A stretch of DNA of 64,000 bases, taken from Octopus vulgaris. Its lineage: Eukaryota. How positions within the stretch are numbered: position 1 is the first letter of the stretch; each line of letters starts with the position of its first letter. Position numbers and translations under genes: made by a program. Positions 34,254-57,108 of the stretch are shown here, piece after piece. Location: contig OX597819.1 in NCBI GenBank assembly GCA_951406725.2, positions 26,722,001 to 26,786,000 of the forward strand. Reading direction: 5' to 3'. The notes below the pieces were generated by a model. The model saw only the letters and a list, made by a program, of their open reading frames with translations, made no database searches and was not told the DNA's origin.

Positions 34254-34719
34254 ATGTAAAGTATAAAAGCCATCTCAATATGGCTAACCACAAAGGGGAG
34301 GGGGTGTTACTGTAGCTTTTTAGCCCCAGGAGATCATCGTATCCAGCTGGCTTTAGACACACTTTCTGTGCTCTTTAGGTATTTGCAAAGGGAGGCCATC
34401 CCTTTCTCGTAAGTCAGTTTTTCGAAATCAGTGGCAGACGTCACTAGAAAAACTCTTATATATTTGCAAACAGGCCTTGTCTTTCATCGTGATCTAGTGA
34501 TTACCGCCCGTTGATAAGAGACAATAATCTCGAAACCGGTCCGGTGCGTATCACTCAGGCTTGCGAGAAAGGGATGGCCTCCCTTTGCAAATACCTAAAG
34601 GGCATAGAAAGTGTGTCTAAAGTCAGCTGGAGACGATGATCTCCTGGGGCTAAAAAGCTACAGTAAGACCCCCTCCCCTTTGTGGTTATCCATATTGAGA
34701 TGGCTTTTATACTTTACAT
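34254..34719. repeat. Long inverted repeat (160-bp arms) with an HHR in the spacer
   Basis: 34254-34413 vs 34560-34719, 7 mismatches by my count; arm fragments also at 35005-35062 and 46777-46835. Confidence 0.92.
34505..34548 (+). ncRNA. Minimal type I hammerhead, U3-A8 core variant
   Basis: CCG-UUGAUAA-GAGA(CAAUAA)UCUC-GAAA-CCGG-UC|CGG; palindromic stem III ACCGGU. Confidence 0.65.
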
Positions 34720-34733
34720 ATTCTTTACATATT

Positions 34734-34961
34734 CTAGATAAATTCAAGTGTTCTGATGGTTTCAGAGCGTTTAGAATGCTTTTTATGCCTTGATACTAGT
34801 GATATCTTTCCATCTTCAGTCTCTAACTCCTTGCAAACTTTGTAGATGAACGATCTGGCAACTTTTAAAAATTGAGATATTTCGAAATTGCTATACTCAG
34901 CCTTTATAAGCACAATAACAGCATGCCTCTTCATTTCTTGGGTAAGCTGAGGGTCTGCCAT
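34734..34961 (-). mobile_element. Tc1/mariner-superfamily transposase N-terminal (HTH) fragment
   Basis: MKRHAVIVLIKAEYSNFEISQFLKVARSFIYKVCKEL...RHKKHSKRSETIRT resembles a transposase DNA-binding N-terminus. Confidence 0.6.
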
Positions 34962-35270
34962 TATTCTTTTCTTAAATAAAGATTATATATATATGTGAGG
35001 TATACTAGCCATCTCAATATGGCTAACCACTAAGGATGGGCGTTACTGTAGCTTGTAGCCCACATTATCGTGCAGTTACTGTTTACATCTCGTTCAGAGA
35101 TTTATTATTACAGATTATATATAGTTAGCAAGAAATGTAGCAATGACCCCAAAAATGCATATCCTCAAACACCTTACGCACCCTATATATATATATATAT
35201 ATATATATATATATATATATATGTGTGTGTGTGTGTGTGTGTGTGTGTGTGTGTGTATATGTATATATGT

Positions 35271-35650
35271 TCTTTTACTTGTTTCAGTCATTTGACTGCG
35301 TCCATGCTGGAGCACATCTTTCAATCGACCCCAGGATTTATTGTTTGTAAGCCTAGTACTTATTTGAACGATCTCTTTTGCTTTGCGAACCGCTAAGGTA
35401 CGGGGACGTAAGCGCACCTACATCGGTTGACAAGAGATGTTGGGAGGACAAACACAGACACACAAACATATATATATATATATATATATATATATACACG
35501 ACGGGCTTCTTTCAGTTCCTGTTTACCAAATCCACTCACAATGCTTAAGTCGGTCCGAGACTATAGTAGAAGACACTTGTCCAAGGTGCCAAGCAGTCAG
35601 ACTAAACCTGGCTGGTAAACAAGCTACATGCCAAACAGCCACTCCTGCGC
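35271..35650 (-). mobile_element. SINE family A, near full length
   Basis: Tail, internal TA tract and head all present. Confidence 0.88.
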
Positions 35651-36246
35651 ATATATATATATATATATATATATATATATATATATATATATATATATAT
35701 ATATATATATGTATGTATATATATACACACACATACTCTGACACACTAACTTCAAATTTGTAGCTAAACATAAAAATAAACATCTAAAACGTTAAAAGCT
35801 AAAGTGTTCCTCTTCTATCCTCTTGTGTGTACCCGACCTATTCCACAATGTGCTCATTAACATCTAACATAGATGAATTGCCCTCTTAAGCAGTCGTAAA
35901 TTTCTGATCGAACAATATGCCAATTAAAAGCAGAACCATGTTGAAAATACTTCAGAGTTTGATATTACAATAGGAATTTCGTTAGAAAATTAAATTATCC
36001 TTAATTGCTTTAAAATAGAATTCATTCCGTTATATCAGAAAAAATATTGAAACTCACATAAATGGCCTTTTTAAGACATGTGTAGAGAAATGTAGGTGTT
36101 GTTGTGAAATATTTTCATCGAAATATACCATTAAGATATTGATCACTCATAATTTCGGAGTATTATTCACTCTTTCACATAACAGAAAAATTTCGTCGCG
36201 GACACTGCTAGTATCCTATATATCAGAAATATTCAATTTGCATATG

Positions 36247-36402
36247 GGTTTGAAATTTTGTCACAAGATCAACCATTTTGCGGGAGTGGGGGGGTCGATT
36301 ACATCGACGTCAGTATATAACTGGTACTTAGTTTATTGACATTGAAAGTAAAAACAGCAATGTCACACTCGGTAGAATTTGAAGACAAGGACGAACGAAA
36401 TG
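36247..36402 (-). mobile_element. SINE family B, diverged
   Basis: GTCGATTACATCGAC and AACTGGTACTTA motifs. Confidence 0.65.
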
Positions 36403-54420: not shown

Positions 54421-54712
54421 ATAAATTAGAGAAAAACCACTATTATGTAATTCAAACAATGATAGACATAAACCAAATCATATAGAATAAAAAATATATG
54501 ATAAAACATTTATCTAGATTACAATAAATGACATAATAATAAACAGTAAATAATAAGTAAATAATTAGTTTAAATAATTACTTACTGTTTATTATTATGT
54601 ACTTTATTGTGATCTAGATAAATGCTTTATCATATATTTTATGTTTTCTATATGGTATGATTTACGTTTATCATTGTTTTAATTACATAATAGTGCTTTT
54701 TCTCTTATTTAT
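54421..54712. repeat. AT-rich imperfect hairpin (~135-bp arms)
   Basis: 54421-54558 pairs with 54578-54712 (e.g. CATAATAATAAACAGTAA / TTACTGTTTATTATTATG). Confidence 0.8.
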
Positions 54713-54738
54713 GTATATACACATATAGGATATATATA

Positions 54739-55063
54739 GGAGCACTCCGTCGGTTACAACGACGAGGGTCCCAGCTGATACGATCAACGGAACAGCTTGC
54801 TCGTGGAATTAACGTGCAAGTGACTGAGCAATTCTCAGACACCAGTACCCTTAACGTAGTTCTCAGGGAGATTCAGCGTGACACAGAGTGTGACAAGGCC
54901 GGCCCTTTGAAATACAGGTACAACTCATTTTTGCCAGCTGAGTGGACTGGAGCAACGTGAAATAAAGTGTCTTGCTCAAGGACACAACGCATCGCCGGGA
55001 ATCGAACTCACGACCTTACAATCGTCAGTCGAAAGCCCTAACCACTAAGCCATGCGCCTTCAC
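54739..55063 (-). mobile_element. tRNA-derived SINE family D, full length
   Basis: Minus: A box TGGCTTAGTGG, B box GAGTTCGATTCCC, central GTGTCCTTGAGCAAGACACTT..CACTCAGCTG, distinct 3' tail. Confidence 0.85.
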
Positions 55064-55189
55064 ATATATACATATATACATATATATATATATATACATA
55101 TATATATATATATATATATATATATATATATATATATATAGAGAGAGAGAGAGAGGGAGAGAGAGAGAGAGAGATACATACATAGATAG

Positions 55190-56590
55190 ATAGGAAAAAT
55201 AGAAGTTGGAAATGCAATTAGAATAGTTAATATATTTATTATTATTATATTTAAGGATTTGACCGGTTTCACAGTTCACACTGATTTTCAAATAGTTGAG
55301 TAAGCTTTGTTTGATCAATGTGATCTTCATTACATCCTTGACATTTGATAGTGTATATTAAATTCATTAAACAACATGTAAAGTAAATTTTTACGGTAAA
55401 AATTTGTCCTGATTTGAATTTGTATGTTGTGTCTTCCAATAAGATTGATGCAAGTCCCAAAGCTGGGGCGGCCACACATTTTGATTGTTGGTGTATGAAT
55501 TGCGGAAGTTAATTTAGCACCTGTGAGGAATTTTTTCAGGATATTTTGATTGTTTTTTTACTATTATTTTTTTTTTTGTGTATTCCGAATGCTTGTTTCA
55601 TTCTTGGGTCTTGTCTTAGTATTGGGATGTTCTGATGGATAACATTGTAAACCTCTGTATTTCTTGGGTAGAGTATTGTAATAAAGGTTAAATTATTGAA
55701 TGTATCTGGAGCGTTTTTCGTAGTTCTTAGATATTTATTGGTTTGGCACGTTCTATTCCGTTGTCTATTAGCATTAATGCATATTGTCTTTTAAGTAGTA
55801 TTTGATTTAGTTCCTGGAGTCTTTTATTGCGAGTTTCAGAGTTTGAGACAATTGTGCAGATTCTTCTTGCTAGATTAAAGGTAATATTATTCTTCGTGCG
55901 TTGGGATGGCATGAAACGAACAGTAAGTATTGTTTAGAATCTGCTTGTTTGTAGTGAATGACTGTTTCAATGCTTTTATCTCATTTGATGATTAGTATAT
56001 CCAGGAATGGTAGTTGAGTTTTACTGTAATCCATAGTGAAGTTTATATTATTGCTTATGCTGTTGATTAGGACCTTGAAATCTATAAGTTGTTCAAATGT
56101 GTGCGTCCATAAGATTACACAGTCATCTAGGTAACGTTTTCAGTTTTCTAGTAGATATTAGTGGATGTTCAAGCTATGTTTTGATTTTGATTTTTCATAT
56201 ATCTGGCCCCCCTTGTAATATCGTCCCTTACAAGACTTGGTATGTATTTTAAAATAGGTTTCAGTAATATATCTAAAAATATATATTGAGTCTGTGTGTC
56301 TCAGAGCTCACGCCTGCTACGATTGGTCTAAATTTGATGTCGGTGGGATATTGTATGTTTAGGCAACTTGATGTCGGTTCTTTACATGCCCACTTAATAA
56401 TAGTTTGATTCTTATGGACTTTTGGGAGACCGTAGAAGTAGCTAGTTTTGCAATCAAAATGTGTTATGTAGTCACATTCTTTGTTTGTTAAACCTTTTTG
56501 AAGTCTGTGTATGAGTGTGTTCAGTTGAGACATTGTCTTTGATCTTTGGTAATTATTCACCTTTTCGTAGCAGATTGTTCAGTAGTACCA
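55190..56590 (-). mobile_element. Penelope-like element (RT + GIY-YIG), decayed
   Basis: FYGLPKVHK...FRPIV, RYLDDC, LPFLDI, NNITFNLARRICTIVS and FTC...NLIYTIKCQGC motifs with stops, frameshifts and deletions. Confidence 0.88.
55255..55293 (-). ncRNA. Degenerate minimal hammerhead, U3-A8 core, at the PLE 3' end
   Basis: UUGAAAA-UCAG(UGUGAA)CUGU-GAAA-CCGG-UC; stem I poorly paired. Confidence 0.45.
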
Positions 56591-57070
56591 TTGGACTTAT
56601 TCAGTCAACCGAGTCAGCCTTAACTTACGACGTCACTTTGATACTTGTTAAGTGATTTTGATACATTGTCACTTGATACTAACACACGGGCGTAGCGGCA
56701 AGCATACAAATATTTCTAAGACCAGTCATGTGACTATTCTCTACCAATCAAACCCTATTCAAAACATATACTAATTTGGACCATGAACTCCCTATAAAAG
56801 TAGGGTAAGCTTCAAACACTATTCAGAAGCAAAATAGCTACGACTTGTGGCACGTCTTTCTATCCTTAAAAGACATGTTAAGATCCACAAAAATCAGAAC
56901 TTATCCCCCGCTCTTGGTGGTCCAAATCAGATGTGCAATCTTTGTGGGTGTCTTTCAGAACATTGTCTGGTTTAATAAGCCACATCAGATGCCATGATGT
57001 TGTTAAGGTATAGGTACAGGAGGTGGTCAAACTCTGCATAAGGAGAAGACAACTACCATATATATAAGTG

Positions 57071-57108
57071 AGAAATTTGAAAAGCTAAACGCGAAACCGG
57101 TCATTTCT
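57071..57108 (+). ncRNA. Minimal type I hammerhead, U3-A8 core variant
   Basis: AGAAAU-UUGAAAA-GC(UAAAC)GC-GAAA-CCGG-UC|AUUUCU; perfect 6-bp stem I. Confidence 0.62.

Follow-up and report, generated by a model that had tools for sequence, protein, structure and literature searches.

Hammerhead motifs with a U3-A8 core in Penelope-like elements and a retrozyme repeat of Octopus vulgaris

Natural hammerhead ribozymes in which the paired core positions 3 and 8 read U and A, and in which stem II opens with U10.1·U11.1, were reported in 2011 (Perreault et al., PMC3088659; here and below, published sources are cited for the parts of them accessible to us). In Schistosoma mansoni, about 1,300 minimal U3-A8 hammerheads have been tied to the Cercyon Penelope-like elements (PLEs), and such hammerheads are described as pairing two copies via a palindrome, with each core cutting the partner strand (Cervera and de la Pena 2014, PMC4209133). 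Here we analyzed a 64,000-nt stretch of the Octopus vulgaris genome (OX597819.1:26722001-26786000), referred to as the window and used for all coordinates, in which an earlier note had described three hammerhead motifs with a compensatory U3-A8 core. Our analysis makes it highly probable that these motifs represent genomic remnants of type I hammerheads, located near the 3' ends of two PLE families and in one retrozyme repeat, and that the source elements cut after the NUH site as strand-swapped pairs. The note had left open that the variant might be new; it was published in 2011 and, for PLEs, in 2014. What is fresh is its abundance in this genome, together with the presence of U-A, C-G, and mismatched forms within one repeat family.

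The O. vulgaris motifs share with the variants reported in 2011 the core swap, a stem II that opens with U·U, and stems II of only 2 bp, but these were rare variants in several examples there and are the state of many high-copy families here (PMC3088659). As in the Cercyon PLEs, U3-A8 cores occur in terminal repeats, mostly as single truncated copies with nearby opposite-strand pairs, and the palindromic stem III is suited to the same dimer model; unlike in Schistosoma, GAAA is followed here by a 4-nt G/C palindrome, and some stems II shrink to 2 bp or open with U·U (PMC4209133). The closest counterparts of the retrozyme repeat are metazoan retrozymes without long terminal repeats (non-LTR retrozymes), which in a mollusc are non-coding, self-paired tandem units of about 350 to 390 nt, each with a type I hammerhead, found beside PLEs (PMC7229834; bioRxiv 10.64898/2026.07.22.740005); the units described here measure 358 to 362 nt. 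However, U3-A8 is not mentioned in the main text of PMC7229834 or in the accessible passages of the 2026 preprint (Li et al.), whereas here it predominates among retrozymes, and three core states coexist in one family. In the accessible parts of the literature searched, including PMC3884650, PMC6765202, and PMC7151607, neither U3-A8 retrozymes nor an amplified C3·A8 subfamily were described, and hammerhead counts for cephalopods were likewise absent; Lunse 2017 lay outside that search.

A descriptor scan of the window confirmed three UUGANAA-stem II-GAAA-CCGG-UC motifs exactly where they had been noted, each with stem II, GAAA, CCGG, and a GUC site. The cores read UUGAUAA at 34511 (+), UUGAAAA at 57077 (+), and UUGAAAA at 55291-55285 (-), with predicted cut sites after 34541, 57102, and 55261 (-), respectively; a fourth GAA(A)-CCGGTH match in the window (58394, -) lacks a core. 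Copy 1 (34497-34554, +) is a type I hammerhead with its core at 34511-34517 and a 4-bp stem II (34518-34531; GAGA/UCUC), followed by GAAA and CCGG. Its stem I consists of 3 bp (CCG/CGG) and, beyond a bulge and an internal loop, is extended by CGC/GCG and GUGAU/AUCAC. Copy 2 (57070-57109, +) has a stem I of 7 bp and a stem II of 2 bp. Copy 3 (55261-55291, -) is decayed: substitutions have left 1 bp of stem I, and stem II starts with the U10.1·U11.1 that is typical of its family, followed by 4 bp. In all three copies we found the N3-UGA-N-N8-A box with GAAA, a Watson-Crick pair between positions 3 and 8 in the form U3-A8, an NUH site, and a very short palindromic stem III, ACCGGU. Stems I and II, with stem I open-ended, can form in copies 1 and 2 but not in copy 3, although they can in the relatives of copy 3.

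We then scanned the genome (2.8 Gb, 227 contigs), using reversed patterns as controls. Under a strict pattern (spacer 7-25, CCGG loop, GUC site), 2665 U3-A8 and 290 C3-G8 cores were counted, against 132 U3·G8 and 150 C3·A8 (reversed controls of 19, 17, 14, and 13 for U3-A8, C3-G8, U3·G8, and C3·A8). Single variants were thus about 18 to 20 times rarer than U3-A8 doubles, and the equal frequency that the earlier note had named as a sign of random decay was absent. Random decay is excluded as the source of the doubles. A relaxed pattern (any four G/C loop bases, any NUH) gave 17133 U3-A8 matches (control, 1208) and 3916 C3-G8 matches (control, 572), and hence at least 15,900 U3-A8 motifs above control in the four-G/C-loop class. 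In Schistosoma, by comparison, about 1,300 U3-A8 forms stand against about 2,000 canonical minimal hammerheads and thousands of canonical ones (PMC4209133). The U3-A8 excess applies to the four-G/C-loop class and does not establish an overall majority, canonical forms with a 2-nt stem III being outside the genome count; in fetched sequence amounting to 570 kb and not chosen at random, one such canonical minimal hammerhead was present. With a retrozyme-type pattern, the counts were 1596 U3-A8, 98 C3-G8, 33 C3·A8, and 4 U3·G8, with controls of 0. Two recurrent matches were taken as false. A common "C3·A8" match with the spacer TTGATGTAAGG lies inside the coding sequence of a long interspersed nuclear element (LINE), and many C3·A8 singles are false matches within LINE coding sequence; a common "C3-G8" match with the spacer CAGCCACAGAAAGAA is stemless and lies in a reverse transcriptase (RT) frame at L152 (labels of this kind denote other genome loci that were fetched). 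The CAGCCACAGAAAGAA repeat made up 68 of the first 100 relaxed C3-G8 matches listed, as counted by eye.

Pairing was examined in an alignment of 17 retrozyme-like hammerheads. Of its cells, 95.5% paired, and both sides changed in 10 of the 13 pairs; none of 500 shuffles reached the observed level, and slid controls paired at 32 to 46%. The 3-8 pair was UA in eight hammerheads, CG in five, and UG in three and was unpaired in one. This covariation provides family-level support for selection on pairing and, with the reading of the cores, supports the proposal of a compensatory U3-A8 type I hammerhead with a palindromic stem III. The loops vary by family (CCGG, CGCG, GCGC, and 6-nt forms), and a palindromic loop was present in 95 of the first 100 relaxed U3-A8 matches listed (by eye), although only 4 of the 16 such loops are palindromes. 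The computed strand-swapped dimer was more stable than two free monomers at their minimum folds for copy 1 (-38.1 versus -35.8 kcal/mol) and copy 2 (-15.1 versus -7.8 kcal/mol) but not for copy 3 (-3.3 versus -9.2 kcal/mol).

The earlier note had traced all three copies to PLEs. Copy 1 belongs instead to a retrozyme and does not lie in a PLE coding for an RT and a GIY-YIG endonuclease. It is contained in a partial sense monomer (34414-34719, +) of a 358-nt non-LTR retrozyme family, of which the 29 other loci fetched are 92 to 96% identical. The repeat is non-coding; the tandem spacing of 358 nt was read in L091, and the window copy is a single partial unit. The circular fold of the L091 unit is 65% paired (z of -4.1 against 25 shuffles), and self-paired circular folds were obtained for all six retrozyme units tested (z of -2.5 to -8.8). 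Sister retrozyme loci hold tandem arrays of two to five units, each with a type I hammerhead. By these sequence features the copy 1 repeat matches non-LTR retrozymes. Every relative of copy 1 with a readable motif carried U3 and A8, bar one with a damaged core. The monomer is adjoined by a second copy of this retrozyme, inverted and truncated at the 5' end (34210-34413, -), which creates a 160-nt inverted repeat (34254-34413 and 34560-34719). A reading of this repeat as a miniature inverted-repeat transposable element was rejected: its arm is internal retrozyme sequence, no fixed terminal inverted repeats are common to the copies, and the inverted parts are variable in length or absent among the 29 relatives. 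Such variation fits PLE-type insertion (PMC8557442), and the repeat is read as an inverted truncated copy of PLE type.

At 34993-35109 lies an older remnant of a related retrozyme, itself forming a short inverted pair and 80 to 89% like the copy 1 family. Two 3' ends are preferred at the sampled retrozyme loci; they are separated by about 44 alignment columns, and both continue into (TA)n, resembling a PLE "tail". In the fetched loci, 6-nt palindromic loops (CCGCGG, CCUAGG) occur within the same families. In the most abundant U3-A8 retrozyme family (L145-L149), the loop is CGCG and arrays reach five or more units of 360 to 364 nt; in the L145 arrays, the units of 360 to 362 nt are more than 99% alike.

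The other two copies derive from PLEs. Copy 2 sits at the start of a stub of about 150 nt (57068-57220, +), in which an abundant Neptune-like PLE family is represented by its 5'-truncated 3' end (hammerhead and tail). The stub is followed from 57221 by (TA)n; longer copies of this family encode GIY-YIG and RT parts. Copy 3 is contained in the 3' tail of a second Neptune-like family (55182-55297, -), which ends at (GA)n/(TA)n. Next to it lie broken RT and GIY-YIG remains of the same PLE (55298-56578, -), with many stops and frameshifts and an internal gap, which are 38 to 76% identical to the open reading frame (ORF) at L159, followed by a piece of its 3' region in the opposite orientation (56573-56863, +), which ends where the copy 3 tail starts in relatives. 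The segment 55298-56863 is likely an internal inversion. In the relatives, the hammerhead lies about 750 to 800 nt further from the endonuclease codons and has a CUUU/AAAG stem I, U10.1·U11.1, and mostly a GUU site, in place of the GUC of copy 3. The earlier note had placed a copy at the 3' end of the minus-strand PLE ORF; copy 3 does abut the ORF, but only owing to a rearrangement, likely this inversion, and substitutions broke its stem I. Deletion of the 5' strand of stem I was considered and rejected; the junction lies upstream of the core, at a distance of about 7 nt.

For both copies, coding capacity for an RT together with a GIY-YIG endonuclease at the C terminus, with the hammerhead in a 3' terminal repeat, was demonstrated through family relatives. 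Domain matches were obtained for RVT_1 (E of 5.7e-8, L159) and GIY-YIG (E of 2.3e-5, L160; 0.015, L011), and Pfam matched none of the window's five PLE fragments. A CxxxxCxxC linker precedes GIY-YIG in the L159 ORF and in the window remains and so is found in both PLE families. A CX2-5CxxC linker marks Neptune PLEs and is common also to Nematis (PMC8557442), and it is by this linker that we call the two families Neptune-like. U3-A8 cores span PLE families whose proteins are 36 to 65% identical to one reference ORF; a family with only 36 to 46% protein identity to the L159 ORF (L177, L178) also has them, and a C3-G8 hammerhead family adjoins PLE coding remains at L176. The three window motifs are independent, as had been claimed, in being insertions from three families, which does not in itself make them independent origins of the variant. 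The proposal that one PLE lineage fixed the variant under selection proved too narrow, since retrozymes carry U3-A8 as well and a C3-G8 family persists beside PLE remains. Nor do the copy numbers speak for selection of U-A over C-G: they show inheritance from source elements, and two single-variant subfamilies have been amplified.

One of these subfamilies belongs to a sister retrozyme family, which is about 36% apart from the copy 1 family and holds all 98 retrozyme-type C3-G8 hammerheads as well as U3-A8 members. Of the 33 retrozyme-type C3·A8 cores, 25 form a young subfamily at 18 loci with one common stem II type, including a three-unit array (units 99.2% alike) and two three-copy clusters. 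A tree was built from a sample of 85 units from loci picked out of match lists; 8 truncated rows, 22 further same-locus units of the same state, and 2 rows with junction sequence were dropped. Positions 3 and 8 were masked, and rows were trimmed because (TA)n tails artefactually split the C3 rows in two. Six copy 1 family rows served as the root, other retrozyme-like families being too distant to add as outgroups. One clade (support 100/98) within a U3-A8 grade held every one of the 12 C3-G8 rows together with 19 of the 22 C3·A8 rows, and 17 C3·A8 rows formed a clade (92/85) with a mean distance of 1.1%. The corresponding values were 4.0% (C3-G8) and 7.8% (U3-A8). The alternative rooting was marginally rejected (approximately unbiased [AU] test, p of 0.0455), with a distant outgroup and an unsettled bootstrap. 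On this weakly supported root, the simplest order suggested by the sequences is a single change of U3 to C followed by A8 to G, which would have restored the canonical pair. C3·A8 may instead represent a later loss of G8 to A at CpG, the order within the clade being unsettled; under either order, a mismatched core has been copied many times. At the sister unit L119, unit-length go-back joints were found in contigs of all four runs, whose RNA nature is a guess and in which tandem DNA gives an identical joint. In contigs of run X1 over this unit, about 70% of the summed depth carried U3, and likewise A8; the RNA nature of the run is again a guess, and this depth is evidence of neither transcription nor cleavage.

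By analogy with the described systems, we regard it as very likely that tandem source-element transcripts are cleaved into units, which PLE enzymes circularise and reinsert. Two copies in a tandem transcript would pair through the self-complementary ACCGGU, each core would cut the partner copy, and RNA of unit length (in the retrozyme, about 360 nt) would be released, circularised, and reinserted by the PLE RT and endonuclease. We infer that pairing of positions 3 and 8 is maintained by selection in the source elements and that the choice of U-A or C-G in each family was set by history. The window copies themselves are solitary and probably largely inert: copy 1 is intact and would need a partner in trans, copy 2 is a truncated stub, and copy 3 is likely dead. 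Several observations weigh against this account. Copy 1 aligns to the whole of the Rfam model Hammerhead_HH9 (RF02275; 34493-34564, E of 6e-5), yet its 34.6 bits fall below the gathering score of 52; Hammerhead_HH9 carries a canonical core. The monomer folding energies of copies 1, 2, and 3 are not better than those of shuffles (z of -0.48, +0.68, and +0.12), as expected if stem III forms between two molecules. The 17 aligned hammerheads were hand-picked and are mutually related. Mismatched cores have been amplified, both in the C3·A8 retrozyme subfamily and in a U3·G8 subfamily of the copy 2 PLE family, which supplied about half of the first 100 U3·G8 matches listed. An older family with a good stem I (L049, L053, L129-L136) has C3·A8 and A10.1·A11.1, leaving no 10.1-11.1 pair, and is apparently a dead hammerhead that still spread. 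Finally, the in vitro cleavage of minimal PLE hammerheads is poor, also when they are dimers (PMC4209133).

The amplified subfamilies, the spread of the degenerate family, and the weak activity of minimal forms in vitro would all agree with a hammerhead that is partly dispensable, in which case PLE enzymes would copy elements whatever their core, U3-A8 would be the founder state of successful families, and cleavage would matter little. Naiad PLEs, which thrive without canonical hammerheads (PMC8557442), point the same way. We nevertheless consider this unlikely, since stems I and II and the 3-8 pair covary across families, the palindromic loops are conserved despite their differing sequence, and single variants are scarce outside the amplified subfamilies (8 other C3·A8 and 4 U3·G8 among the retrozyme-type cores, against 1596 U3-A8). 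It is more doubtful still that U3-A8 has been favored over C3-G8 as a slower ribozyme that spares host pre-mRNAs or allows longer tandem transcripts. The genome-wide excess, spread across divergent PLE families as well as retrozymes, would be as expected, but drift in an AT-rich genome also accounts for it, and a homogeneous C3-G8 retrozyme clade with arrays of four to five units is apparently nested within U3-A8, which is the opposite direction. Chance matches, or canonical hammerheads that decayed independently (C to U and G to A), would account for the weak monomer folding and the broken copy 3. We hold this to be extremely improbable in view of the 2665 strict matches over 19 in the control, the scarcity of singles, many of which among C3·A8 are false LINE matches, and the nearly uniform U3 and A8 of the copy 1 relatives.

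Within the preferred reading of cleavage as strand-swapped pairs, the sister family raises a further possibility. Predicted heterodimers between its subfamilies (-25.9 to -28.2 kcal/mol) are on a par with homodimers (-25.9 to -28.5 kcal/mol), and stem I and ACCGGU are compatible across subfamilies. At the locus L203 (C28:20675100-20676300), a single insertion combines two copies in opposite orientation, one C3·A8 and one C3-G8, which differ at 12 of 299 sites with 3 gaps, and this mixed insertion may have arisen from two RNA templates. We tentatively propose, as a conjecture that is probably wrong in at least some part, that a switch from U3-A8 through C3·A8 to C3-G8 is ongoing in one family and that C3·A8 units spread via cleavage in trans by intact sister RNAs in strand-swapped heterodimers. 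G8A alone strongly lowers hammerhead activity. If the proposal is true, a ribozyme active only as a dimer lets a lineage cross a compensatory fitness valley and supports ribozyme "cheaters". The spread of C3·A8 may otherwise be explained by residual activity or by a dispensable ribozyme.

As the earlier note had anticipated, a search for the canonical CUGANGA would miss U3-A8 cores. Of the 1694 retrozyme-type hammerheads counted with a Watson-Crick pair, 1596 (about 94%) would be overlooked, and the motifs lost altogether would exceed 15,000. Surveys of hammerheads and retrozymes may therefore undercount such genomes. The sister family provides natural, near-isogenic putative ribozymes with U3-A8, C3·A8, and C3-G8 cores (about 5 to 11% apart) and is suited to testing how a paired catalytic position swaps and whether retrozyme spread needs cleavage.

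As a separate observation, the U3·G8 wobble-core subfamily (L043, L045, L048, L163) has been amplified in inverted pairs. A further PLE-like relic in the window, GC-richer and broken (57467-58577, +), contains a YIDD motif and a CxxC plus YIGET endonuclease-like stretch; it gave no Pfam match and no hammerhead by descriptor. The earlier note had assigned the host pre-mRNA to BAIAP3. We found one plus-strand exon (50652-50855, 204 nt, AG/GT ends) that is weakly Munc13-like, matching the Munc13-1 C2 region at a non-significant E of 0.24, and an Atlas lead pointed to C2 proteins with a low recognition score. The exon would fit an unc-13-family gene, but the name BAIAP3 was not confirmed, and neither that identity nor the inclusion of copies 1 and 2 in its transcript follows. 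A possible second exon lies near 25371-25505 (+). By eye, the window also contains fragments at 33742-34074 (+), 29677-29885 (+), and 49662-49973 (+) that we take to be Tc1/mariner transposase-like.

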